NCBI GenBank assembly: GCA_964559555.1
Contig: CAZLHM010000007.1
Coordinates: forward strand, 1,942 to 65,941
Direction: 5' to 3'
Origin: an uncultured Candidatus Bathyarchaeia archaeon
Lineage (GTDB): Archaea > Thermoproteota > Bathyarchaeia > 40CM-2-53-6
DNA: 64,000 nt
The notes below the pieces were generated by a model. That model was given only the letters and a program-made list of their open reading frames with translations. It was not told where the DNA came from and did no database searches. Below, in pieces: positions 7,982-61,216 of this stretch (position 1 is the stretch's first letter; each line of letters opens with the position of its first letter). Both the position numbers and the translations under genes were made by a program.

Positions 7982-8803
7982 CTACTTCCTCCTCCCCAGT
8001 GAGTGCAGAATCGCCTGCTGAGCCGAGTAGACATCAATTGCACTTTCTGGTAGTCCAAACTCTCTCAATTCATGCATCAGTGCGCCGATCTGAGGTCTCG
8101 TTAGGGAGGCTTTGTCTAGGAGCGGCTCGTCAGAAAGTAACTCCTCGGCCGGGCGGTCTCCGATGACTTTTCCTCTGGAGAGCAGGACGATGCGTGGCTT
8201 GCACTCCGCAACGAATTCGACGTCGTGGGTGATGATGATTACGGTCTTGCCTTGTGTGTTGAGTTGGACGATGAAGTTCCTAAGGCGGTCCTTCTGTTGG
8301 TAGTCCTGTCCGATGGTCGGTTCGTCGAGAATGATGTGTTTGGGATTCCAGACCAGCACAGCGGCGAGGGCTACTCTCTTTCTCTCTCCCCCGCTCAGTA
8401 TGAAAGGTGAGGATTCTGCGTACCGAGACAAGTCCAAGGTTTCCAAGATCGAGGTGACTCGTCGCTGAATGGTCTCTTCGTCGTAGCCAAAGTTCCTCAA
8501 AGAGAACGCGAGTTCTTCTTTGACGGTTTCCGAGAAGAGCTGATGGTCTGGGTTCTGAAAGACCAGCCCAACATCCCTCGAAAGCCTTGCAACGCTGGCT
8601 TCGCGCGTGTCTAAGCCATCGACCTTTACCTTCCCTACGGTCGGCATGAGGAGACCGTTGAAGGTCTTGACCAGCGTAGTCTTTCCAGCGCCGTTCTCCC
8701 CCATGATCGCAACGAATTCTCCATCGTTGATCGTGAGATCGATTCCGAGAAGAACCTCAGGCGAACTTGGATAGGCGAACCGGAGTTCCTCGGTTTCTAT
8801 CAT
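7982..8803 (-). CDS. ecfA2: ECF transporter ATPase component (EcfA2/CbiO).
   Basis: Walker A GENGAGKTT, signature LSGGERKRV and Walker B IILDEPT are present. Confidence 0.88.
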   Translation of the reverse strand: MIETEELRFAYPSSPEVLLGIDLTINDGEFVAIMGENGAGKTTLVKTFNGLLMPTVGKVKVDGLDTREASVARLSRDVGLVFQNPDHQLFSETVKEELAFSLRNFGYDEETIQRRVTSILETLDLSRYAESSPFILSGGERKRVALAAVLVWNPKHIILDEPTIGQDYQQKDRLRNFIVQLNTQGKTVIIITHDVEFVAECKPRIVLLSRGKVIGDRPAEELLSDEPLLDKASLTRPQIGALMHELREFGLPESAIDVYSAQQAILHSLGRRK

Positions 8804-9642
8804 TGCGTAAACATGCTCCTCAGCTGATTGGCTGCCTCGTCAACGGTCGTAGGCATCTGCGAGATCCGGAGCCCCTCTTTCTGTAAGAGCTGAAAGAGTG
8901 TCGTTACTCTCGGTAGACCGATACCGATTAGCCTGGCTTCCTCACCATAGACCTCTCCAGGTCGTCCGTCCAGGACGATCCTACTTTCATTCATCACAAT
9001 AACTCGATTTGCATGCCTAGACACAATGTCGAGTCTATGCTCAACGAGTATGATTGTGATTCTTAGCCGCTTGTTGATGCTGGAGATGACTTCGAGGATC
9101 TCCAAGGCCGACTTGGGATCTAGAAACGATGTTGGTTCGTCGAGAACGATCACTTTGGGTTGCATTGCTAGAACCGCTGCAATCGCGGCTCTCTGTTGCT
9201 GACCGCCAGAGAGCTCGTAGGGTGGCTTATCTTTGAGATCGATGATCCCGGTCACGCCAAGAGCCCAATCAACACGCTTTCTTGTTTCCTCTCTGCTGAG
9301 TCCAAGGTTCTCGGGGCCGAAGGCAACGTCTCTCTCGATGCTGAGGGAGAAGAGCTGGTTCTCCGGATTCTGGAAGACCAGACCTACATGTGACGCCAAC
9401 TCAGCGGTTGTGTGATCCTTGACGTTCATGCCGTCGACGATGAGTTCCCCACTAAAATCCCCCGAGTAGAAGTTTGGGATCAATCCATTTAGGCATCGGC
9501 AGATCGTCGTCTTCCCGCAGCCGCTTGGACCTGTAAGAACGACGAACTCCCCAGCGGATATGTCAAGTGAGATGTTCTGAATCGACGGTCTGGGGGCGCC
9601 CATGTATGTGAAGATCAGATGATCAGCCCGGATGATCGACAA
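8800..9642 (-). CDS. ecfA1: ECF transporter ATPase component (EcfA1/CbiO).
   Basis: Walker A GPSGCGKTT, signature LSGGQQQRA and Walker B IVLDEPT are present. It overlaps ecfA2 by 4 nt. Confidence 0.88.
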   Translation of the reverse strand: MSIIRADHLIFTYMGAPRPSIQNISLDISAGEFVVLTGPSGCGKTTICRCLNGLIPNFYSGDFSGELIVDGMNVKDHTTAELASHVGLVFQNPENQLFSLSIERDVAFGPENLGLSREETRKRVDWALGVTGIIDLKDKPPYELSGGQQQRAAIAAVLAMQPKVIVLDEPTSFLDPKSALEILEVISSINKRLRITIILVEHRLDIVSRHANRVIVMNESRIVLDGRPGEVYGEEARLIGIGLPRVTTLFQLLQKEGLRISQMPTTVDEAANQLRSMFTQ

Positions 9643-13254: not shown

Positions 13255-14370
13255 ATGGTGGAAGTCTCGATCGAGGATCAAGCCAGGGACATAACTACTT
13301 CAGCCAACGCAGGAATCCTTCGCATCGGCAAGATCTCGGCAGCCTTGCCAAACAAGTTCGCAACGACCGCCGAACTCAATGCAACTCGCACAGTTGGAAG
13401 CAAGGACATGCTTCCTGGCGAGGTGATTATCTCTGCCAAGCTCATGTATCCTGATTCACTCAAGAAGATCCTCAAGGAGGAAGACTCTCTCCGCAGCTTT
13501 GCACGACGCCTTTCACGTGAGTCAGGAGGATACGAGGATGTCGCAAGGCTGCTGTTTCTCATCTTCAAGGGAGAAGCATCGTACGGTAGTGCTGAAGACC
13601 TCAGAACGCTACTTGACCTTCAGTATTTCGCAGATATGGACGTTGTGACAGTTCAGCAGTCAGCTGAGATGAGTCCTGAGGATTTCGCGTCCCTGCTGAA
13701 GTTCGCTGAGAGGTGGCTGAGTCAGAAAGGCATCGACAAGCCGCTTATGCCAATAGTGCAGGCATCAGAGACCTTGCGCGAGTTTGAGCTTTTCGCTGCT
13801 CCTATACTGAAACGCAAGTTCGCTCTAATGGGGGTCGACATGAGGGGAGGCTTCCACTACTACACACTCAGAGCGATCGAGAAGGTCAAGAAGAAAGATC
13901 CTGGTGTGTGGATTCACGCGTTGCAGGTTCCTCCGAAGATCAGGTTTGCGCGCCACCTGCTACCATCTTCACAAGGAATGCTGATGCCCTATTTCGGGGT
14001 GGACAGTTTCTCTAGGTGGGTCGTGCCTCCGCCTCCTGTTCCTCTCACGAAAGACAAGATCAACGTGTTTGACAAGTCCGGATGGGGTGTCTTCAAGCGA
14101 AAGGAGTGGACTCAGCTCCATGGGAAGAAACTCACTTGCACATGCCCAATGTGCAAAGGCCAGAACCTCGAGGGATTCTACACCGGGAAGGTACTCACGG
14201 TCCTAGGCCGAAGCAAAATCCACGATCATTACGCTCAGCAAGATGAGCTGAAGAAAGCCTCAGAGAGCATACGCAAGCGCGAGTACACCACGTTGATCAA
14301 GAAGAAGAAGTACGCGAACCTATTCGTCGGAGAACTCAAGAAGTCGCTAGAGGCAGAAGCGAAGACCTAG
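13255..14370 (+). CDS. Divergent tRNA-guanine transglycosylase (TGT)/DpdA-like protein; substrate unknown.
   Basis: A C-terminal TGT-type zinc site C-x-C-x2-C-x22-H spans 14137..14223 (CTCPMC...TVLGRSKIHDHY, compared with E. coli TGT CDCYTC...ILGARLNTIHNLRYY). It is preceded by YFGVDSFS, which resembles the TGT GxDxFD strand. The N-terminal ~250 aa is not recognisable by eye. Confidence 0.45.
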   Translation: MVEVSIEDQARDITTSANAGILRIGKISAALPNKFATTAELNATRTVGSKDMLPGEVIISAKLMYPDSLKKILKEEDSLRSFARRLSRESGGYEDVARLLFLIFKGEASYGSAEDLRTLLDLQYFADMDVVTVQQSAEMSPEDFASLLKFAERWLSQKGIDKPLMPIVQASETLREFELFAAPILKRKFALMGVDMRGGFHYYTLRAIEKVKKKDPGVWIHALQVPPKIRFARHLLPSSQGMLMPYFGVDSFSRWVVPPPPVPLTKDKINVFDKSGWGVFKRKEWTQLHGKKLTCTCPMCKGQNLEGFYTGKVLTVLGRSKIHDHYAQQDELKKASESIRKREYTTLIKKKKYANLFVGELKKSLEAEAKT

Positions 14371-14948
14371 CTTGACGTCGCCGCCAGAAGCGTCATGAGG
14401 TCTCTCAGATTCACTTCCGACTTCGTGCGCCAACCAATCGAGAATCCTCCCGATTCGTCTTCCGTTAGGTACCCGTTCCGCACGAAGGCGTCTAGCAACG
14501 TCAGTGCCTTCCATCTTCCGACCTTCTCCGCCAGAAGCTTCTCTACCTCTTCTCGCGGTGCTTTGCCCTGTTTCGTGAGGACGTAAGCAATCGTTATCGT
14601 GAGAGCGGCTAGGTTGTCGATTCGCCACCCGGACAATCGAGCCTCCTTCGGAGTGAGGGTTCCTCTCAATGTAACCAAGTATCGAGCGTCCTCTGCTGCG
14701 TCTGTGACCGGCTCTTCAACGAGCGGCCTAGCCTGTGAATGTTCAGGCTCGATTCGCTTCACTTCGAGATCAAGTTCCGAAAGCAAGGCATCGACTTGCT
14801 TGACGATCTCCTTGTAGTTCTTCCCGAGCCCGGCTTTGAGTTCCCATTCCTTCGCGCCCGGCATCTTCCCTCGCTTGAACAGTAGTAGGTGGATCGCACG
14901 CTTGAGCTTCTCACCATAGAAACGTGTTTCGGCGCTAGCTTGTTCCAT
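14367..14948 (-). CDS. Tandem winged-helix protein, ScpB/KITE-like partner of the adjacent kleisin.
   Basis: The N-terminal half (AIHLLLFKRGKMPGAKEWELKAGLG...VDALLSELDLEVKRI) and the C-terminal half (REEVEKLLAEKVG...LLDAFVRNGYLTEDESGGFSIGWR) each follow the ScpB winged-helix pattern. It overlaps the kleisin gene by 14 nt. Confidence 0.5.
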   Translation of the reverse strand: MEQASAETRFYGEKLKRAIHLLLFKRGKMPGAKEWELKAGLGKNYKEIVKQVDALLSELDLEVKRIEPEHSQARPLVEEPVTDAAEDARYLVTLRGTLTPKEARLSGWRIDNLAALTITIAYVLTKQGKAPREEVEKLLAEKVGRWKALTLLDAFVRNGYLTEDESGGFSIGWRTKSEVNLRDLMTLLAATSS

Positions 14949-15792
14949 GAGTCATCTCACCCACACTTTCATCAAGAGCACTTCCGTTGCTGCGCACCAC
15001 TTGCTTGGGGATCGGAATCGGATAGCTGATCAATCCGTCGACCGCCTTTCCGGCAGGTGTCGAAAGCGGTACGAGTCTCATGCTATCGACTTCGCGGACG
15101 AGTCTCGCGAATCCATACGTGAGAAGGAAACTCACGAAGTAGGCGCGCTCTACGGTCTGCTGATATGTGTTACGTCGTACAAATGACCAGTAATCAACGG
15201 AGCTGCCTTCTCCAGTTCGGTCCATTAATTCCTTCCAGAGTCCTTGCAGATGCTTCTCGAAATCCTCGCGTGTAAGGATGCCGGATCTCACAAGATAGTC
15301 AAGGTCAGCGTCCACTGGGGGTGCGGCCTTTCCCATTGCGAGTCTCTTCCTTCTCGCCTCATATGAGAGCATCTGTTTCCAGTATTGGATTCCTTCCTGG
15401 ATAGCGTCAACCGTAAGTTGCTCTCGCTCGACTATTGGATGCCAAGACTTCAGGAAGATCTCACCGAGTCGTTTGACTGAGAGCGTGCGGAACTTCTTCT
15501 CAAGTAGCTCAGGGTTTGTGTAGAGCGAACTCGACTGGTATCGAAGTTGACTCCTCTGGAGGTTGAGTACTTCTGCCAAGTCCTTGATGGTTTCAGCGTC
15601 AAGGCAGTGATCCTCAAGCGATTCCCAGAATGGGAAGTACTTACGCAGCGTCTCAACGGCGAAGCTCACATCCATGAAGAACGGGTTGAATTTGTGATTT
15701 CTTATCGCCTCGCACGTCGAGATGAGCTCACGAAGCTCCTTTCGTCCCGACGGGAGTCTGACGCGCGCTGTCTTCTCGCTCGAGGGAGGCAT
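14935..15792 (-). CDS. ScpA-like kleisin.
   Basis: The C-terminal segment DYWSFVRRNTYQQTVERAYFVSFLLTYGFARLVREVDSMRLVPL matches the ScpA C-terminal winged-helix pattern. Its start codon directly abuts the stop of the SMC-like gene. Confidence 0.5.
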   Translation of the reverse strand: MPPSSEKTARVRLPSGRKELRELISTCEAIRNHKFNPFFMDVSFAVETLRKYFPFWESLEDHCLDAETIKDLAEVLNLQRSQLRYQSSSLYTNPELLEKKFRTLSVKRLGEIFLKSWHPIVEREQLTVDAIQEGIQYWKQMLSYEARRKRLAMGKAAPPVDADLDYLVRSGILTREDFEKHLQGLWKELMDRTGEGSSVDYWSFVRRNTYQQTVERAYFVSFLLTYGFARLVREVDSMRLVPLSTPAGKAVDGLISYPIPIPKQVVRSNGSALDESVGEMTHGTS

Positions 15793-17769
15793 CTATTTCA
15801 CCTTGGCCACGACGGAGCTGCCCTCAACGTTCTGTACAACTACTACGTGAACATCATGATCGGGCACTAGGACTTGGCCGGGCGTGATGGCGACGTACTG
15901 AGTGTTCTGCATCTCTCTTGCACTTGAAACGATCAGCCGTGAGATGACTTCCCGGTTCTTCGGGTCCATGTGAACATCGAACTCGTCAATTGCTCTGAAG
16001 GGGGAGGAGATGTGTTGTTGCAGTGCAAGCAAGAACGCCATCAGTGCGATGCTTCTTTCGCCACCGCTTTGGGTGAGTGAGTCAAGGCGGGTCGGAGGGA
16101 CGCCTTTGAATCCGACCAAGATGTCGAGTCCCGCTTGGTCGATACTCCTTGCTGTGCTGAGTTTCAGCTCGCCTTTCGCCCCAACTTCCTGCAAGATCTG
16201 GTTGTAGCGCATTCTGAGCGATTCCAGGAAGGATAACATCACCTCCTTCCATTTTTCGAGCCTCTTCTCCACCTCAGCCATGATCTCTTGTCTATTCCTT
16301 GCGAGCTGTTCCGTCTTTTCGCGTAGGTCTTCGTAGACCGCTGTGTATGAGGCATACATTTTCTCCACATCTTCTGAAAGGTGAGCAATGGGCCGGAGTT
16401 GCTCCTCGGTAGCACCGATGTCCATAATTATGTCGCCGATCTTTCTGGGGTTCTGGAACCTAGGACCCATCTTCTCGGCGTTCACTCTAAGCGGCTGAAT
16501 CTCCTCTTCTAGTATCCTGTGCTGGGTCTCAAGGTCAGCAAGCTCTTCGCTGAGCATCTTCCTCTTGAATCCGAGAACTTGCGTGTCAACGCGAGCGTCT
16601 ATCAGCCGAGAGAGTTCACCCTCGATTCGGGCATCCAATTCACGTAGTTCATTCTCCTTTCCCTGACGCCTTTCTCGAGCACGTCCCAGCTTCTGTTCTG
16701 CTTCGATGCGAACCCGAGTCCAGTCGTCCAGCCATTCCCTCATCGAGAGAAGCAGATCCGAGTGCTCCCCAGGGTTCGCGGGCACGGATTGCAGTGCGTC
16801 GCTGGTTTCATTATTGACATTTGGGAAGAGGCGCTTCTTGGCCTCATCAGAGAAACGCTGGACCCATTCAATTGTCGACGCAATTGACGATTCTTGGCGA
16901 ACGAGCTCCAAGTACCTATTGTGCAGTTCAAACCTATCCTTCAGATGCGTGTCGTATCTCTCTTGGCGGCGCTTGAGGAGCTCGTCCGCTTCCTGCAGTT
17001 TTTGGTCCGCGTTCTCGATCATTCTGGCTCTTGTTTCAATTCTCTCTCTGATACGTGAAAGGGCCTCTTCGCGTTTCTGAATCCTTGCCCAAGCCATCTC
17101 TCGCTTCAGATCTGCAAGCTTGGTGTCCAGAGTTTTCTTCAGTAGGAACCGCTCGTATTCTCTTCGCCAGTAGTCGTGCGTTTCCTTTGTCGACTCGAGA
17201 ACCTGAACGAGTGACTCCTCCTCGCCGGCTACCTTTGTGAGGCGATCTTGCGCTTCGAGGACATTGATGCGATAGGACTGGAATCCAACGGCTTCCTCCA
17301 GCATCTTCAGTTTGTCATTCGGAGGAATCGAAGCAAACTTACCCACCATAAGTTGATGCATGATGACGAGGATGTTGTCAGGGTTCAGACCGTACCTATC
17401 AAGAGCGTTTACGACATCGGTTTTGCTCACAGGGTGATCTTGGACAAGGTACTGGTAGGTTCCATTTCGCTTGAGGACCCGTGTAACGGTCACGTTGTCG
17501 ACGTGGTATTGAGGAAACGGTTTGCCGTGCTCTCTGGCCCGGTTGTCCAGTTGGAGGGTTATCCGAGCCTCGCTTGTGCCCCATCTTATTAGGTCGCTAA
17601 GGCGGCGAGCTCTCTCTGTGTACGTCTGGCCCAGAACGACTGAGATTGCGAGGAGAATGGATGACTTCCCTGCCCCGTTGGGGCCGCAGATCAAGTTTAG
17701 CCCTGACTCTAGTGGCACGTACGCATTCTCGTACGACATGAAGTTCGTCAGAGCTATGCCCTTGATCAT
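15793..17769 (-). CDS. Short SMC-family ATPase (658 aa) with SMC5/6-like head motifs and no hinge or zinc hook.
   Basis: The N-terminal head is IALTNFMSYE...LICGPNGAGKSSILLAISVVLG (Walker A). About 400 aa of heptad-rich coiled coil is broken once by FPNVNNETSDALQSVPANPGEHSD. The C-terminal head carries signature LTQSGGERSIALMAFLLALQ and Walker B/D-loop PFRAIDEFDVHMD. Confidence 0.7.
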   Translation of the reverse strand: MIKGIALTNFMSYENAYVPLESGLNLICGPNGAGKSSILLAISVVLGQTYTERARRLSDLIRWGTSEARITLQLDNRAREHGKPFPQYHVDNVTVTRVLKRNGTYQYLVQDHPVSKTDVVNALDRYGLNPDNILVIMHQLMVGKFASIPPNDKLKMLEEAVGFQSYRINVLEAQDRLTKVAGEEESLVQVLESTKETHDYWRREYERFLLKKTLDTKLADLKREMAWARIQKREEALSRIRERIETRARMIENADQKLQEADELLKRRQERYDTHLKDRFELHNRYLELVRQESSIASTIEWVQRFSDEAKKRLFPNVNNETSDALQSVPANPGEHSDLLLSMREWLDDWTRVRIEAEQKLGRARERRQGKENELRELDARIEGELSRLIDARVDTQVLGFKRKMLSEELADLETQHRILEEEIQPLRVNAEKMGPRFQNPRKIGDIIMDIGATEEQLRPIAHLSEDVEKMYASYTAVYEDLREKTEQLARNRQEIMAEVEKRLEKWKEVMLSFLESLRMRYNQILQEVGAKGELKLSTARSIDQAGLDILVGFKGVPPTRLDSLTQSGGERSIALMAFLLALQQHISSPFRAIDEFDVHMDPKNREVISRLIVSSAREMQNTQYVAITPGQVLVPDHDVHVVVVQNVEGSSVVAKVK

Positions 17770-17870: not shown

Positions 17871-20777
17871 CTAATCCCAGAAGCGTCGAGTCTCGGTATA
17901 CTTCAACTTCGCCTTCAACAGGTCGGCGTAGAATTCGTCATCTTGCGTGTGCATTCTAGCCAAGATGCTCGCTGCAGTCTGCGGGCCGACTCCCCAAGTC
18001 AGCATAGCCAGAATTGCCTGTTTTCCATATGAAAGAACCAAATCCGCGGCGCGCCGTGCTTGGCTAAGGCCACGCCTCTCTTCCTCGGTCAGTTTCTCCT
18101 TGAACTTCCACTTCCGTAGGATTCCGGGCACATCCGCTCTTACCTTATTCTGCAGGCTGAGCAACCCTGAACCGCATGTGAGACACCTTGGGAAGTCCGG
18201 GAGTTCGTCCGTCCGCTTCTCAGTCATCGCGGAACCGCACTGCATGCACATCAGCTGGACCCTCTGGGCTAGGAGTGCCGTTTTCATTCGCGACAGGCTG
18301 TCCTTCTTCGTGCTCTCTGGCGCAACCATCTCCGCGACTTCAACAAGCTTGTTCAGCATATAGAACGCCTGAGGCGAGGGGGAGTCCTGCGACAGCACGG
18401 GCACAACCGAGATCCTTCCGTGTGCAATCGAGCGCACAATTTCCTTGGCCGAGTCAAGATCAACCTCTCTAAGCTTCGCCTCCCGCATCGTTTCTTCGTG
18501 GATGGGTGTCGATTCAAAGCGTGATGAAAGGTCCAAGAGCGTTCGATCCGCAAAAAACAGACCGCGCGGAATCGCTCCGAACCTCTCAGCAATGAACTTC
18601 ATACCGTACGAGAAGGGAAAGCGGCGTTTCGAGTACCTAGTGAAGGCCTCCTCCATCGTCTCGCCGGACATTGAGAGCAGCTCTCTCGAGAGGGAATTGA
18701 TGGAATCCCGAGAGACTACGTCAGGAAGTTCGATCAGGATACGATATCCATCTGCCCATACGTTGCCGACAGCGCATCGTTCCGTAAGAATCTGATCGAA
18801 GACGTATGCGAGAGCCCTATTGACCGCCTCCCCGAATGACGCGTGGACTATCAGGTATCGGTCAAACCCCTCAACGAGGATGGTCTTGTCGCTTGGTACG
18901 GGATACCCCTTGGCAACATAGTTCTCGATCTCCTCGACGATGCGAGTCGCGGCCAGTCTCTCTACTGGATAGTGTCCGGACAGTTCCTCGATGGCATCCT
19001 CCTTGCCATGCGACTTCACGCTCTTCTCCACCTCTGACCTGATTTTCCCTACTTCTTGCGCGACTCCAAGCGGAACCGGGAGAATCTCGCCATCCCATCC
19101 CGGTATAGCGGCGGTCGGATCCTCGATTGGCACGACGTAGATGTTGCCATCCTCTGCAACCTGTGCGATCTCCCACACGCGGCCTCTGCAGATGAAGTGG
19201 ACTCCCTTCCTGGCACGTAGGAGCACGAATTCCTCCCCGAGGGTTCCAATTCTCGTTTGAGACGTGATGTCGAGTATTGTGTAACGTCGCTCGTCGGGTA
19301 TCATCGAGAGATTCCGGTAGTAGTACTCCCTAGTCTTGGAAGTCCTTGACAGGACGTTGCCTTTCCTACGAATCAGACCTAGCTTCTCCATGTACTTCGT
19401 CACCCAATCCAGTTGGTCGAGGGTGAGAGTGCTGAAGACACCTGATCTTCTAACGATCGAAAGTATCCCCTTTGGCGTCGCGTGATCAACATCCATTAGG
19501 ATGCCTGCCACTTGGTGTGCGAGTACATCAAGAGCATTCGAGTGTATACTGACTGATTCCAGTCGCTGCTCCTTTGCTCTCCTGATGATTGCAGCCGATT
19601 CAAGCACGTCCTCAGGATACGCGCAGATCACGATCCCCTCAGAGATGCGGCCTAGGCGATGACCTGATCTTCCAACTCGCTGAATGAGTGCAGAAACCTG
19701 CCGTGGCGAGAGATACTGCACAGTTAGATCAGCGCTACCGATGTCTATGCCAAGCTCGAGCGTCGACGTGCAGATGATCCCTCTGAGCTTGCCAGCCTTG
19801 AACTCGGTCTCGACACGAGAGCGTTCCTCACGTGATAAAGACCCGTGGTGAACTGCGATCCGTTTGTCCAGTGCACCCAATCTGAGGCCGAGCATCTCAG
19901 CATGCTGACGACTATTCACGAAAACCAGCGTCGAAGTGTGAGTGTCGACAAGCTCTCTGATTCTCGATATCCTAGCGGCGGCTTCGGGGCTCGTGTATAG
20001 AGACTGTGCAAGGTCGTGGTCCTCGGGAGTGGGATAAGGATACTCAACGTGGTACCTAGTCTCTTTGTCGATGCTGATGTTGATTGTCTCACATTTCTCC
20101 AGAGGACCAACCAAGAAGTTCGCGACCTTTTCAGGATCACCAACTGTCGCCGACAGTCCAATCCTCTGAAACTTACTTCCTGTGATTTGTCGCAGTCGCT
20201 CTAGCCCGATTGTGAGTTGGGCTCCACGCTTGTCTTGGCTGAGCTCGTGGATCTCGTCTATGATGACCGCTTGAACGGACTTCAGATGCTGTCTCATGGC
20301 GGCGCCTGGCAGTATCGCTTGGAGTGTCTCCGGTGTGGTTATGAGCATGTGTGGAGGATCTCTGCTCTGTTTTCGTCGCTGGGACGGGGGAGTATCGCCA
20401 TGGCGTATCTCGCATCGGATTCCTATCTTGTCGGTGAGTGCTGTGACTCTTCTGACCATGTCACGGTTCAGCGCACGAAGTGGAGTCACGTATAGAATCG
20501 CGATGCCTTTTCTAGATCGTCTCGTGAGATACTGACTAAGTATAGGCAGGAGCGCTGCCTCGGTCTTTCCAGTCGCCGTCGGCGCGATCAGAAGAACGTT
20601 TTCTCCGTTGAGAATGCGAGGAATTGCGAGCGCTTGAGGCGGAGTAGGTGTCGTCATTCCTAGGTCAGCGAGAGCGTCACTAATCGGTCGTGCGAGCAAT
20701 TGGAATGTGTTTTCCGATCCTATCGCCGAGCGAACGCTCAAACCAGTCTCCCTGTCGCGATCGCGAATCCAGTACAC
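17871..20777 (-). CDS. lhr: Lhr-family large ATP-dependent helicase (DEAD/DEAH box) with a C-terminal zinc ribbon.
   Basis: Motif I APTATGKTEAALLPIL, motif II IIDEIHEL, LSATVG and HHGSLSRE..R are present. A C-terminal CMQCGS...CLTCGS forms the zinc ribbon. The 968-aa size fits the family. Confidence 0.85.
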   Translation of the reverse strand: MYWIRDRDRETGLSVRSAIGSENTFQLLARPISDALADLGMTTPTPPQALAIPRILNGENVLLIAPTATGKTEAALLPILSQYLTRRSRKGIAILYVTPLRALNRDMVRRVTALTDKIGIRCEIRHGDTPPSQRRKQSRDPPHMLITTPETLQAILPGAAMRQHLKSVQAVIIDEIHELSQDKRGAQLTIGLERLRQITGSKFQRIGLSATVGDPEKVANFLVGPLEKCETINISIDKETRYHVEYPYPTPEDHDLAQSLYTSPEAAARISRIRELVDTHTSTLVFVNSRQHAEMLGLRLGALDKRIAVHHGSLSREERSRVETEFKAGKLRGIICTSTLELGIDIGSADLTVQYLSPRQVSALIQRVGRSGHRLGRISEGIVICAYPEDVLESAAIIRRAKEQRLESVSIHSNALDVLAHQVAGILMDVDHATPKGILSIVRRSGVFSTLTLDQLDWVTKYMEKLGLIRRKGNVLSRTSKTREYYYRNLSMIPDERRYTILDITSQTRIGTLGEEFVLLRARKGVHFICRGRVWEIAQVAEDGNIYVVPIEDPTAAIPGWDGEILPVPLGVAQEVGKIRSEVEKSVKSHGKEDAIEELSGHYPVERLAATRIVEEIENYVAKGYPVPSDKTILVEGFDRYLIVHASFGEAVNRALAYVFDQILTERCAVGNVWADGYRILIELPDVVSRDSINSLSRELLSMSGETMEEAFTRYSKRRFPFSYGMKFIAERFGAIPRGLFFADRTLLDLSSRFESTPIHEETMREAKLREVDLDSAKEIVRSIAHGRISVVPVLSQDSPSPQAFYMLNKLVEVAEMVAPESTKKDSLSRMKTALLAQRVQLMCMQCGSAMTEKRTDELPDFPRCLTCGSGLLSLQNKVRADVPGILRKWKFKEKLTEEERRGLSQARRAADLVLSYGKQAILAMLTWGVGPQTAASILARMHTQDDEFYADLLKAKLKYTETRRFWD

Positions 20778-59338: not shown

Positions 59339-61216
59339 TTAGCGAGTGATTTCCTCGATCAACGCTGGAATTATCTTCCCGGCGTCTCCTATCACGCCAT
59401 AGTTGCAGGAATTGAAAATTGGGGCATCAGGGTCATTGTTCAGAGCTATGACGGTCTCTGCACCCTGTATGCCCACCAAGTGTTGAATGGACCCGGATAT
59501 GGCGACTGCGACATAGAGTTTCGGTCTGATGGTCTTCCCTGTCTGGCCAATTTGGATCTCTTTGTCGGCGAATCCTGACTCTACAGCCTTGCGAGACGCA
59601 CCGACGGCCCCCCCTAGGGCCTTTGCCAGGTCTCTCACAAGCTCAAAGTTCTTAGCTGAACCGAGTCCCCTCCCTCCTGAGACAACGATGTCAGCCTCCT
59701 CAACCATGCTGCTCCTCTCGACCCATTGGAAGTCGAGCACCTTGGTCGGAACCTCCTCCTCTCTCAGGTCTATCTTGACTCTCTCGATCTCACCAGTGCC
59801 CTTGATCTTCGTTGGCTTCGCGAATACCCCGGGCCGAACAGTGCTCATCTGAGGCAAGTGCTTCGGAGTCATGATCATCGCCAGTTGACTTCCGCCAAAT
59901 GTGGGCCTGATCTGAAGCAACAGTCCAGTATCCGGTTCGATGTCAAGTGATGTGCAATCCGCCGTCAAACCTGCGTGTATCTTTGTTGCGACGATGCTCG
60001 CTAGGTCTCTACCATTTCGAGTTGCCCCAATCAACAAGATCTGGGGTGGCCTTGATGTCGCCAACTCAGTCAGACTCTTGGCATATGGCGCAGGACGATA
60101 GTGCATGAGTAGAGGGTGGTCGATCAGGTAGACCTTGGACGCGCCGTAGTTCAAGGCTTCTCGCGCAATTGCATCCACATCGTGCCCAAGAACAACCGCC
60201 TCTAGCTGAGTGCCTAGCTTCCTCGCCAACTTGTGTCCTTCACCAAGCAGCTCCCACGAGACACCTGCGACATGTCCCTCGTTCTGTTCAATGAATACCC
60301 ACACGCCCGCGTGTTCCGAGCTGGGCTGACTCTTGACTACAGGTCGTATGTCCCGGTCTTCCGAAACCAAAGAACTCCCGGATCGTTCTCGACCGATCCT
60401 GCAAGATAGAACCTTGTCCTTCAACCAGCGAGCGGCCTGCGCAGGATCACTCCTACCGTCAAATATCTCTCCTCTTCCCCTAGCTTTGGGGATGAACATC
60501 TTGCGGACCGTTGTAGGCGAGCCGGCCATGCCGATTCTCGCCGGGTCGGCTTCGATCACTTCCTTGTTCCAGAAATCTACCTTTGCCCTTCGGGCATCGA
60601 GAATACCCTGTATCGTTGCCCTACGCGGTTTGTTCACTTCCTCAAGAACCGACACAGCAGCGGGTAGAGAGACTTGGACTGTCTCGACGATCTCGTCGGC
60701 CTTTCTGACCGCGAGGACTGTTCTCCCTTGTGGATCTACCTTTGCTATGCGCTTTGTGTACGTGATTATCGGCACGTCCATCCTAGCGGCGACGCCGGGG
60801 CCCACTTGTCCTGTCTCACCATCGAGTGCCTGTTTTCCAAAGAGCAGAAGGTCAATAGGCCCCTCTTCCTTCTCCACCTTTCGAATGGCTGTAGCGATTG
60901 TATAGCTCGTGGCGTATGTGTCTGCACCGGCCATGGCTCTGTCGGTCAAGAGGATTGCCCGATCAGCGCCCATCGCGAGCAAATCTCTCAGAGCATTTTC
61001 TGCCTGTAACGGTCCCATGGTCATCACGATGACTCTCGCGCCGTAGAGGTCCTTGAGCTTCAAACCTTCCTCAACTGCGTTGACATCTGTGGGATTGATG
61101 ACCGCGGGAATACCTTCTCTGATCAGGGTACCAGTCTCGGGGTCGATCTTTATCTCGGCGGTGTCTGGTACTTGCTTGATGCATGCTAGTACCCGCAATC
61201 TCAGCTTCGCCGCCAT
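59339..61216 (-). CDS. Fused electron-transfer flavoprotein, EtfB (N-terminal) plus EtfA (C-terminal) in one 625-aa polypeptide.
   Basis: The N-terminal half is VLACIKQVPD...INPTDVNAVEEGL...LLFGKQALDGETGQVGP (beta). The C-terminal half is VWVFIEQ...GGRGLGS...RPKLYVAVAISGSIQHLVG (alpha FAD-binding motif). Confidence 0.85.
   Translation of the reverse strand: MAAKLRLRVLACIKQVPDTAEIKIDPETGTLIREGIPAVINPTDVNAVEEGLKLKDLYGARVIVMTMGPLQAENALRDLLAMGADRAILLTDRAMAGADTYATSYTIATAIRKVEKEEGPIDLLLFGKQALDGETGQVGPGVAARMDVPIITYTKRIAKVDPQGRTVLAVRKADEIVETVQVSLPAAVSVLEEVNKPRRATIQGILDARRAKVDFWNKEVIEADPARIGMAGSPTTVRKMFIPKARGRGEIFDGRSDPAQAARWLKDKVLSCRIGRERSGSSLVSEDRDIRPVVKSQPSSEHAGVWVFIEQNEGHVAGVSWELLGEGHKLARKLGTQLEAVVLGHDVDAIAREALNYGASKVYLIDHPLLMHYRPAPYAKSLTELATSRPPQILLIGATRNGRDLASIVATKIHAGLTADCTSLDIEPDTGLLLQIRPTFGGSQLAMIMTPKHLPQMSTVRPGVFAKPTKIKGTGEIERVKIDLREEEVPTKVLDFQWVERSSMVEEADIVVSGGRGLGSAKNFELVRDLAKALGGAVGASRKAVESGFADKEIQIGQTGKTIRPKLYVAVAISGSIQHLVGIQGAETVIALNNDPDAPIFNSCNYGVIGDAGKIIPALIEEITR

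Follow-up and report, generated by a model that had tools for sequence, protein, structure and literature searches.

Archaeal SMC proteins related to SMC5/6, and the type of operon that encodes them, have already been published (Yoshinaga & Inagaki 2021, PMC8665677; van Hooff et al. 2025, bioRxiv 10.1101/2024.01.07.573240), and the cassette reported here belongs to that family and operon type. It shares with the published operons the SMC5/6-allied head, the Nse4-like kleisin and the Nse1,3-related kite neighbour, as well as the TACK-centred distribution including Bathyarchaeia, and nothing sets it apart from them. An earlier note on this DNA called such compact complexes poorly characterised in archaea, which holds for their biochemistry, though the family and operon type were already present in the phylogenomic literature cited above. 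In these two papers the coiled-coil region was removed, or the phylogeny alone was treated. A term search of the main text and supplements of van Hooff et al. (bioRxiv 10.1101/2024.01.07.573240) turned up neither the lack of a hinge nor a shorter length in the archaeal clade, and no Lhr or helicase; in the Yoshinaga paper (PMC8665677), such a search met hinge and length in general or methods contexts only. Unmentioned in both are the clade's lack of a hinge, the CxxC apex of a sister subgroup and the aLhr1 adjacency in many distant archaeal lineages; the missing hinge of the mini clade and its conserved pairing with aLhr1 appear not to have been described previously.

Layout of the SMC-kleisin-kite cassette

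The window, meaning the whole 64,000-nucleotide stretch of DNA analysed, is part of a Bathyarchaeia chromosome and carries three packed minus-strand genes, encoding an SMC ATPase, a kleisin and a tandem winged-helix protein.

15793..17769, minus strand: mini-SMC ATPase, 658 aa, SMC5/6-related (ORF; Pfam, PDB, profile and Foldseek matches)
14935..15792, minus strand: Nse4-type kleisin, 285 aa (ORF; start codon abuts the SMC stop codon)
15052..15345, minus strand: C-terminal winged-helix domain of the kleisin, approximately residues 150-247, Nse4_C-like (Pfam, family profile)
14367..14948, minus strand: kite-like tandem winged-helix protein, 193 aa (ORF; 14-nt overlap with the kleisin gene)

The ORF list agreed with the earlier note on the coordinates, strand and lengths of the three genes, and also on the 0-nt SMC/kleisin junction and the 14-nt kleisin/kite overlap; the kleisin and kite-like genes are translationally coupled to the SMC gene. 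Each of the three proteins has hundreds of same-length homologues, and the SMC-kleisin-kite gene order is kept in approximately 65 of 80 species-representative loci, spanning Thermoproteota classes, Hadarchaeota and one Asgard lineage. On these two grounds the genes are real rather than chance ORFs. The proposal of a complete SMC-kleisin-kite cassette is supported. We are highly confident in the identity of the cassette as an SMC5/6-related archaeal SMC complex.

The 285-aa protein had been credited with a ScpA-type C-terminal winged helix, which was not upheld, as neither Pfam nor the family profile searched against the PDB gave any ScpA match. Instead, the domain is of the Nse4 type: Pfam Nse4_C matched weakly (E=0.011), the family profile found human NSE4/EID3 (9lwi_D, E=1.2e-6) and yeast Nse4 (E=0.003) in the PDB, and several of the 238 homologues carry a precomputed Pfam Nse4_C match. 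This winged helix is the predicted site for binding the SMC head 'cap', and the N-terminal 130 residues of the kleisin are strongly conserved.

The 193-aa protein has 645 homologues, nearly all of about 193 aa. Its AlphaFold2 (AF2) secondary structure, HHH-ββ followed by H-β-HH-ββ, comes from a model of low pLDDT (55), and its best Foldseek matches were Nse1/MAGE-G1, JetB, MukE and Nse1-Nse3, all of them weak and borderline (E ~1e-3, TM-scores ~0.35). The Pfam SMC_Nse1 match was weak as well (E=0.096), and the kite family profile returned zero sequence matches in the PDB. Because the predicted secondary structure is that of a tandem winged helix and the top fold matches are kites only, the protein looks like a kite, probably nearest to Nse1/Nse3, although this assignment is less firm. 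Of the two ScpB-like winged helices claimed previously, the tandem winged helix is thus retained, in a low-confidence model, while no ScpB signal was seen.

Head and hinge-less arm of the mini-SMC

The ATPase motifs and arm segments are listed below; the motifs were read from the sequence and are invariant in a 36-sequence alignment (A1).

17662..17685, minus strand: Walker A / P-loop GPNGAGKS, residues 29-36
16828..17280, minus strand: N-terminal coiled-coil arm, residues 164-314, one continuous helix (AF2, pLDDT ~90)
16765..16827, minus strand: apex, residues 315-335, a 21-residue Cys-free Pro/Asn/Ser-rich loop in place of a hinge or zinc hook (AF2)
16183..16764, minus strand: C-terminal coiled-coil arm, residues 336-529, with helix breaks at 435-443 and 462-466 (AF2)
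16051..16071, minus strand: ABC signature QSGGERS, residues 567-573
15964..15999, minus strand: Walker B and D-loop FRAIDEFDVHMD, residues 591-602, with catalytic E596

All of the motifs quoted by the earlier note (Walker A, QSGGERS, Walker B/D-loop) are present, and judged by them the SMC ATPase is catalytically intact. Pfam SMC_N spans residues 1-645 with E=4.7e-35. Among PDB sequences (phmmer), the best matches were Smc5 (6e-34) and Smc6 (1e-26), with prokaryotic Smc (2e-25) behind them and Rad50 (~1e-5) far behind, and the protein is not a Rad50/SbcC member. The family profile ranked Smc5 (141.6 bits) and Smc6 (132.4) before Pyrococcus Smc (130.1), a small margin between SMC5/6 and archaeal Smc. 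Yeast Smc6 and Smc5 stood on top of the Foldseek matches, and when 1.84 billion representatives were searched exhaustively, eukaryotic SMC5/SMC6 (Arcella SMC5, Mycoemilia SMC6 and dictyostelid proteins) gave the best full-length matches outside the archaeal family. In a crude neighbour-joining (NJ) head tree, in which the 'canonical' sequences carry no labels, 281 of 300 bootstraps set the mini clade, its hinge-bearing archaeal relatives and eukaryotic SMC5/6 apart from the canonical-like SMCs. The SMC5/6-like heads proposed earlier are therefore borne out by sequence, profile, fold and a rough tree, and the published phylogenies agree with this alliance (PMC8665677; bioRxiv 10.1101/2024.01.07.573240).

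In the AlphaFold2 model, the arm is a plain coiled-coil hairpin that joins the N- and C-terminal head halves, with approximately 150 residues per arm (~22 nm). The apex loop has pLDDT <50 and no secondary structure, indicating disorder; its length and sequence differ even between close relatives, and it is the least conserved part of 72 family members (major-residue frequency 0.08, 71% gaps). Pfam detected no SMC_hinge in the ATPase, though SMC_N covers nearly all of it, and the description 'hinge-less' is consequently sustained by Pfam, model and apex conservation. A Rad50-type CxxC hook, whose absence the earlier note had pointed out, is impossible, since the ATPase has a single Cys (C28), and CxxC was found in 0 of 71 relatives. 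The gene is not a broken one, because the 71 full-length species representatives all measure 543-684 aa, nor is it a frameshifted canonical smc. A sister subgroup of the mini clade has the Rad50-like CxxC apex, and Asgard-type relatives keep a globular middle domain, unlike the hinge-less mini clade.

Head, neck and joint are conserved in the family alignment, but distal arm and apex are not: in the N-terminal arm, conservation is 0.57 at the neck (approximately residues 166-230) and 0.29 in the distal part, and it is 0.50 over residues 435-529. The modelled helix breaks are consistent with an SMC 'joint', and Foldseek matched the Pyrococcus Smc head and joint structure 5xei. This conservation pattern fits kleisin binding at the neck, while a hydrophobic pattern missed by conservation scoring could still allow the distal arms to dimerise.

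Gene neighbourhood and proposed role

A helicase gene lies 101 nt upstream of the cassette on the same strand.

17871..20777, minus strand: aLhr1-type Lhr helicase, 968 aa, with a C-terminal CxxC...CxxC zinc ribbon (Pfam DEAD, Helicase_C, WH_Lhr, DEAD_assoc)

At 30-31 of 80 loci, in different phyla, an Lhr gene is a direct neighbour of the cassette, and aLhr1 is adjacent in 25 of the 61 loci with at least 3.5 kb of flank, often convergent and within +/-65 nt of the kite gene. The adjacency was observed in Bathyarchaeia, Hadarchaeota, Methanomethylicia, Nitrososphaeria/Caldarchaeum, Conexivisphaera and Hodarchaeaceae, and the zinc ribbon occurs in all 26 cassette-linked Lhr proteins (26/26). 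Convergent adjacency does not amount to co-transcription, and it could be retained ancestral synteny. In two Bathyarchaeia loci a Rad50 gene lies 2-3 kb from the cassette. The other neighbours in the window are housekeeping genes (TFB, IleRS, Kae1, aIF5B), GC content is flat over the region, and the inheritance of the cassette looks vertical.

Overall, we read the cassette as a chromosomal operon for an archaeal SMC complex of the SMC5/6-related kind, in a reduced form whose SMC is of half length and has no hinge, with a putative clamp/repair role (probability about 0.6). Two SMCs, one kleisin and two kites would assemble, as in other homodimeric kite-type SMC complexes. The N-domain of the kleisin would bind one SMC at its conserved neck, and the Nse4_C winged helix of the kleisin would bind the second SMC at the cap. 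Engagement of the heads would be driven by ATP, and DNA would be clamped on top of them, beneath the kleisin/kite module. With the hinge missing, the complex would have no conserved apical dimerisation device, and would therefore not close into a large ring at a hinge but act on DNA as a short clamp or tether gated by ATP, with the heads, and possibly arm-arm contacts too, holding it together. By analogy with SMC5/6 and by gene neighbourhood, it may act with aLhr1 to maintain replication DNA that is damaged or stalled; its role is best sought in DNA repair or replication stress, and this clamp/repair mechanism is put forward tentatively, at slightly below even odds.

The complex might instead be a general chromosome organiser, that is, a compact condensin-like motor which folds or segregates the chromosome and complements or replaces Smc-ScpAB, with no specific repair role. 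The complete complex with intact ATPase motifs, the vertical inheritance and the housekeeping surroundings would all suit such a motor, and canonical SMC is also present in only 44 of 80 genomes with an SMC5/6-related protein (Yoshinaga & Inagaki, PMC8665677), so that in the remainder this protein may be the only SMC. However, we consider it unlikely, given that ~22 nm arms without an apical dimerisation domain are hard to square with a ring closed by a hinge or with a loop extruder that takes long steps, that a canonical hinge-bearing SMC can share the contig with the cassette (locus L044), that ScpB-like kites recorded in Bathyarchaeia genomes suggest a division of labour, and that the recurrent neighbours, aLhr1 and Rad50, are repair genes.

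Somewhat less likely still is a RecN-like protein, in which short-armed, hinge-less SMCs dimerise tip to tip through their coiled coils and tether broken ends for recombination under regulation by kleisin and kite. The shape is that of RecN (~550-680 aa, short antiparallel coiled coil, no hinge) and the context is repair-related, but the protein is not a RecN homologue: NCBIfam recN scored 49.5 bits against a cutoff of 408, and RecN was absent from the top 50 fold matches. RecN itself has neither kleisin nor kite, and with apex and distal arms poorly conserved, there is no sign of a conserved tip interface.

A defence role against foreign DNA, in which a Wadjet/Mks-like system (the option left by the earlier note) or another one would sense and restrict it, is very improbable: the SMC-kleisin-kite architecture is common to JetABC, PADLOC matched mad3 to the ATPase (7e-37) and JetB weakly to the 193-aa protein (5.8e-4), JetB is within the top fold matches of the kite model and the neighbouring Lhr matches BrxHI, but no JetD/MksG-type nuclease or Toprim gene was found in or beside the cassette, the mad3 match is generic because two ordinary ABC ATPases in the window score equally well (7e-35, 1e-27), JetC reached only 2e-7 over 44 residues, and the cassette keeps its housekeeping synteny from one phylum to the next instead of lying in a variable island.

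Comparison with known SMC systems

With Wadjet JetABCD/MksBEFG the cassette shares the logic of SMC, kleisin and kite; it differs in lacking both a nuclease subunit and any MukF/JetA-type kleisin signal, in a JetC similarity restricted to the P-loop region and in its housekeeping, syntenic context. Like RecN and Rad50, the mini-SMC has a coiled-coil hairpin without an SMC hinge and a putative repair role, and its total length is near that of RecN, whereas in sequence and fold it stands much nearer to SMC5/6 than to either, it has no CxxC hook and no Mre11 partner, and the kleisin and kite that accompany it are absent from RecN/Rad50. Prokaryotic Smc-ScpAB, with a homodimeric SMC as predicted here, is likewise an operon of SMC, kleisin and kite with the same ABC ATPase motif set, and a head-proximal 'joint'-like break is predicted in the mini-SMC as well. 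Against this, the mini-SMC scores 196 bits where the NCBIfam SMC equivalog cutoff is 729, the cassette gives no SMC_hinge, ScpA or ScpB Pfam match, and the arms of the mini-SMC are less than half as long.

The eukaryotic Smc5/6 holo-complex (Smc5-Smc6-Nse1-Nse3-Nse4 with Nse2 and Nse5/6) is closest to the mini-SMC in head sequence and fold. The cassette has a single SMC gene (a putative homodimer) in place of the Smc5/6 heterodimer, an SMC of 658 aa with no hinge compared with ~1100 aa, one kite gene and no RING domain, and no candidates for Nse2 or Nse5/6. Common to both are the Nse4-type C-terminal winged helix of the kleisin and the kite-type partners, and DNA repair or replication stress is the putative field of action of both.

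The cassette and its SMC ATPase

ORF calling agreed with the earlier note on the coordinates, the lengths, the abutting junction and the 14-nt overlap of the three minus-strand genes that make up the cassette:

15793-17769, minus strand, SMC ATPase, 658-aa ORF
14935-15792, minus strand, kleisin, 285-aa ORF, with its ATG immediately after the SMC stop codon
14367-14948, minus strand, kite-like protein, 193-aa ORF, overlapping the kleisin gene by 14 nt

The three genes are translationally coupled. Base composition is flat across the region, the annotated start codons are backed by alignments, and homologues of matching length number in the hundreds for each product; one SMC-kleisin-kite set amounts to about 130 kDa. 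The ATPase motifs quoted in the earlier note were found in the 658-aa protein and are invariant in an alignment of 36 sequences. A broken, frameshifted canonical smc gene was ruled out, as both head halves lie in one ORF and 71 species representatives display the identical architecture at 543-684 aa.

With regard to the identity of the ATPase, Pfam SMC_N covers residues 1-645, and the protein scores far under all curated equivalog cutoffs of NCBIfam.

Table. NCBIfam scores of the 658-aa ATPase (bits; cutoff)
SMC_prok_A: 196; 729
Rad50: about 55; 700-1000
RecN (TIGR00634): 49.5; 407.85
ASRP (archaea-specific SMC-related protein): 49.4; 300
Arcadin-4 (Rkd4): 35.7; 860

Among solved structures, a phmmer search of the PDB placed yeast Smc5 (6e-34), human Smc6 (1e-26) and archaeal Smc (2e-25) first, followed by Smc3, Smc2, Smc1 and then Rad50 (about 1e-5), and a profile of the family kept this order at a narrower margin (Smc5 141.6, Smc6 132.4 and Pyrococcus Smc 130.1 bits). 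HMMER, run exhaustively against 1.84 billion cluster representatives, gave about 120 sequences at E<1e-30; outside the archaeal family, the best full-length matches were, by their source names, eukaryotic SMC5/SMC6 from Arcella, Mycoemilia and several dictyostelids. When the AF2 model was searched with Foldseek, yeast Smc6 and Smc5 came first, the Pyrococcus Smc head and joint fourth, Rad50 12th and JetC 44th, and RecN was absent from the best 50 matches. The SMC5/6-like head proposed in the earlier note was therefore recovered by phmmer, profile and fold comparison. Rad50/SbcC, with its E-value of about 1e-5 against 6e-34 for Smc5 and its CxxC hook missing here, was ruled out as the identity of the ATPase, as were RecN, on its bit score and the fold matches, and ASRP and arcadin-4, on their bit scores.

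A rough neighbour-joining tree of the head domains (282 columns, 300 bootstraps) united the short hinge-less family, here called the mini clade, and a longer CxxC-bearing subgroup in one clade in 283 of the 300 replicates. This clade, together with hinge-bearing archaeal relatives and eukaryotic SMC5/6, was split from the canonical-like hinge-bearing SMCs in 281/300, and published phylogenies agree with the grouping (PMC8665677; bioRxiv 10.1101/2024.01.07.573240). The SMC head thus groups with eukaryotic SMC5/SMC6 and not with canonical archaeal or bacterial SMC, though its profile margin over Pyrococcus Smc is small and the tree crude.

Pfam gave no SMC_hinge (PF06470) match in the 658-aa ATPase. 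In the AF2 model, which has a mean pLDDT of 76 and reaches about 90 in the arms, a single helix (164-314) and a disordered loop of 21 residues (315-335) are followed by helices 336-434, 444-461 and 467-529, and the breaks at 435-443 and 462-466 would correspond in place to the SMC joint. The apex loop varies in length and sequence even between relatives that are 55-80% identical, and conservation was lowest there among 72 family members from separate species.

Table. Major-residue frequency by region (72 family members)
Heads: 0.63-0.68
Neck and joint: 0.50-0.57
Distal arms: 0.29-0.30
Apex: 0.08, with 71% gaps

All 71 full-length relatives span 543-684 aa, none of the 71 carries a CxxC, and the window ATPase has one cysteine in its entire length. 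The absence of PF06470, the short predicted loop and the single cysteine bear out the hinge-less and hook-less architecture claimed in the earlier note. Each arm has about 150 residues, which corresponds to about 22 nm; for the Smc arm, about 47-50 nm has been given (PMC5344682).

The partner proteins turned out differently from what had been supposed. Neither the ScpA-type winged helix ascribed to the 285-aa protein nor the two ScpB-like winged helices ascribed to the 193-aa protein were recovered, and an ScpA/ScpB identity was rejected, as no Pfam or NCBIfam match to either family was obtained at E<=1 in either protein. The 285-aa protein gave a weak Pfam Nse4_C match (E=0.011), several of its homologues bear PF08743, and the kleisin family profile matched in the PDB the C-terminal winged helix of human NSE4/EID3 (1.2e-6) and yeast Nse4 (0.003), with nothing else at E<1. 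The adjacent kleisin is Nse4-related. Conservation in this kleisin is highest over the N-terminal 130 residues, which would fit a neck-binding domain.

For the 193-aa protein, Pfam SMC_Nse1 reached E=0.096 with no other Pfam or NCBIfam domain, and the kite family profile found no significant sequence match in the PDB. Its AF2 model, which is poor (pLDDT 55), displays the secondary structure of two winged-helix units, and its five best PDB folds are all kites (Nse1/MAGE-G1, JetB, MukE and Nse1-Nse3) at borderline values (E about 1e-3, TM about 0.35); since the model is of low confidence, these fold matches are suggestive only. The protein is probably kite-like, leaning to Nse1/3, and is not demonstrably ScpB-like.

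Distribution, gene neighbours and relatives with other apexes

One scan of species-representative genomes yielded 80 loci, spread over Bathyarchaeia, Hadarchaeota, Methanomethylicia, Nitrososphaeria/Caldarchaeum, Korarchaeia-like lineages, Thermofilales, Conexivisphaera, Culexmicrobium and one Hodarchaeaceae. With an HMM for each of the three proteins, the order SMC-kleisin-kite was recovered at about 65 of these loci; the three co-localised genes thus have the centre of their distribution in TACK and Asgard archaea. At three Bathyarchaeia loci (L016, L029 and L034) the mini-SMC has no kleisin or kite gene within 2-3.5 kb downstream, and the cassette may be split in some lineages or these may be solo paralogues. 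Some cassette-bearing sequences, namely L009 (DASPWZ010000014.1) and the proteins P0149 and P0166, carry bacterial labels in public records (Candidatus Dormiibacterota, [Eubacterium] cellulosolvens and Candidatus Acidoferrum), which are probably due to mis-binning or contamination.

In the window, the neighbours of the cassette are housekeeping genes (TFB, IleRS, Kae1, aIF5B and an M29 peptidase), and a tRNA scan of the window found none. Farther away, a 625-aa ORF (59339-61216, minus strand) with two ETF-domain stretches and an ETF_alpha FAD-binding domain looks like a beta-alpha fusion of electron-transfer flavoprotein. A 371-aa gene (13255-14370, plus strand) is convergent with the kite gene, their 3' ends overlapping by 4 nt; its product matched no family, and it adjoins the cassette at 10 loci, all of them Bathyarchaeia or unclassified archaeal MAGs. 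Clustering of the flanking ORFs showed that just two further gene families recur across phyla, an Lhr helicase and a protein of about 235 aa:

Window 17871-20777, minus strand, aLhr1-type Lhr helicase, 101 nt upstream of the cassette on the same strand
L014 8304-8993, minus strand, protein of about 235 aa
L073 9174-9911, minus strand, protein of about 235 aa
L058 9204-9950, minus strand, protein of about 235 aa

The Lhr gene is present at 30-31 of the 80 loci, or at 25 of 61 when only loci with 3.5 kb or more of flank are counted, and the archaeal lineages concerned are very distant from one another. In most cases it follows the kite gene directly and converges with it (gaps of -64 to +48 nt); L001 resembles the window in having it directly upstream on the same strand, with a gap of 72 nt. 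Cassette-linked aLhr1 was also found at L043, L057, L062, L065, L067, L070, L073 and others. All 26 full-length linked helicases bear the C-terminal CxxC...CxxC ribbon, the defining feature of aLhr1 according to PMC8301817; the same paper records no conserved neighbours for this helicase and describes it as biochemically uncharacterised. The protein of about 235 aa (230-250 aa) occurs at 24 loci in TACK, Hadarchaeota and one Hodarchaeaceae genome, mostly on the strand opposite to the cassette and upstream of it, and directly adjacent in about half. It has no Pfam, NCBIfam or PDB match, its gene is absent from the window, and it may be a further partner or regulator of the cassette.

Other SMC-type genes were found near the cassette. 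On one Nitrososphaerota contig (L044), a gene for a canonical hinge-bearing SMC, whose N-terminal head is interrupted by an intein, was found 3.6 kb away from the mini cassette, and two Bathyarchaeia loci (L018 and L022) hold short Rad50 genes of about 700 aa with Pfam zinc hooks, 2-3 kb upstream of theirs:

L044 8394-12473, minus strand, canonical SMC
L018 6037-8148, minus strand, short Rad50
L022 4673-6790, minus strand, short Rad50

The mini-SMC therefore coexists with both. In the window itself no canonical SMC was found among ORFs of at least 150 aa, the sole ORF above 1000 aa being IleRS.

Two kinds of longer relatives were recognized. The CxxC-long group (P0378, P0388 and P0391, three Bathyarchaeia clusters of 1016-1047 aa; locus L082 2105-5248) has the heads in common with the mini-SMC but bears at the apex about 470 inserted residues, in the middle of which a conserved C-[DE]-[KR]-C-G-S resembles the Rad50 zinc hook. 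P0378 is about 40% identical to the window ATPase in both head/neck halves, is a solo gene with no kleisin or kite beside it, and nests with P0388 inside the mini clade of the head tree. The second kind, the hinge-bearing relatives with a globular middle domain, comprises P0398 (982 aa), P0441 (928 aa) and P0450 (835 aa), each followed by kleisin and kite homologues; the loci of this kind are L081 4014-8261, L083 6001-10438 and L084 6001-9632 (CP147778.1), the last being that of P0450. P0450 has a Pfam SMC_hinge match at 4.6e-11, and its locus, L084, is set among genes for ubiquitin, E1, E2, RING and Roadblock proteins, as is typical of Asgard archaea. The middle region of P0398, whose locus has an Lhr gene 2.3 kb downstream, gave no significant match in the PDB or Pfam, and we therefore name it only a globular middle domain, hinge-like by position. 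Because these longer relatives come off at the base of the mini clade or outside it in the neighbour-joining tree, the simplest reading would be a loss of the middle domain, or hinge, in the mini clade.

Proposed mode of action and its alternatives

The ABC/SMC motifs of the ATPase are intact, its heads and neck are conserved, and the kleisin has a cap-binding domain of the Nse4 type. By analogy with established SMC-kleisin-kite structures, the complex would assemble as 2:1:2 SMC:kleisin:kite, ATP would engage the heads, and DNA would be clamped on them beneath the kleisin-kite module. Since no conserved apical dimeriser is present, the complex may, we suggest, be a short clamp or tether anchored at the heads and not a large closed ring. 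The kinship with SMC5/6 and the aLhr1 and Rad50 neighbourhoods lead us to propose further that it may act at damaged or stalled replication DNA.

A bolder reading, to which we give a probability of roughly 0.3, is that the widespread TACK branch of the SMC5/6-related family would work without hinge or hook as a minimal head-anchored, ATP-gated DNA clamp, having lost the middle domain still present in the Asgard-type relatives. In one Bathyarchaeia sub-branch the apex would have been rebuilt as a Rad50-like CxxC hook and kleisin and kite dropped, and the mini complex would form a functional module with aLhr1 on damaged or stalled replication DNA, much as SMC5/6 is linked to fork-remodelling helicases, of which this would be the archaeal equivalent.

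Set against a role at damaged or stalled DNA, a general chromosome organiser, which the earlier note had also considered, seems unlikely. We consider it more doubtful still that the protein serves as a RecN-like tether joined tip to tip.

A defence system is very improbable, as the best PADLOC match of the ATPase, mad3 at 7e-37, is generic and a nuclease subunit is missing from the cassette. The mad3 model also matched two ordinary, adjacent ABC ATPases of the window, as did mad8, and this similarity to mad3 and mad8 is thus of a general ABC-ATPase kind:

8800-9642, minus strand, ABC ATPase, mad3 7e-35
7982-8803, minus strand, ABC ATPase, mad3 1e-27

No other mad model matched in or beside the cassette. 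JetC matched at 2e-7 over residues 3-46 only and JetB weakly (5.8e-4), JetA and JetD gave no PADLOC match in the cassette, and the neighbouring genes gave no defence matches beyond generic helicase and ABC similarity. The Wadjet/Mks-like surveillance option raised in the earlier note accordingly found no support, and Wadjet, MADS or other defence identities were rejected, the PADLOC matches having proved generic.

To our knowledge, none of the eukaryotic SMC complexes is less well understood than SMC5/6, and the prokaryotic proteins most closely related to it have so far been treated merely as tips of phylogenetic trees. If the head-anchored clamp is correct, a widespread archaeal branch has a half-size, hinge-less complex with a single SMC and a single kite, a very small natural system that could be used to ask which SMC actions (clamping, entrapment, translocation) need a closed ring. 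Evolutionary scenarios would gain in precision as well, the SMC5/6 ancestor being better modelled on the hinge-bearing Asgard-type relatives than on the mini forms. The recurrence of aLhr1 beside the cassette offers a first testable functional partner, for the mini complex and for aLhr1 alike.

Comparison with known systems

The "SMC5/6-related aSMC" family and the three-gene operon type have already been published, and the published listings include Bathyarchaeia genomes with adjacent Nse4-related and Nse1/3-related genes (PMC8665677; bioRxiv 10.1101/2024.01.07.573240). The hinge-less architecture of the clade, the CxxC-apex subgroup and the aLhr1 linkage were found in neither family paper nor in full-text searches, which the slash in "SMC5/6" hampers. 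These three features are apparently undescribed and merit specialist attention; their functional meaning is inferred.

Compared with Rad50/SbcC, which is defined by an apical CxxC zinc hook and an Mre11/SbcD partner, the window ATPase lacks the defining features. Canonical Smc-ScpAB has a central hinge, arms of about 50 nm and a length of about 1150-1200 aa, none of which is displayed by the window ATPase, and its ScpA kleisin and ScpB kite have no signal in the partners encoded here. Eukaryotic Smc5/6 adds Nse1 RING, the Nse2 SUMO ligase and Nse5/6, whereas the cassette holds no additional subunit genes; and where Smc5 and Smc6 form a heterodimer joined at the hinge, the cassette encodes a single, hinge-less SMC.
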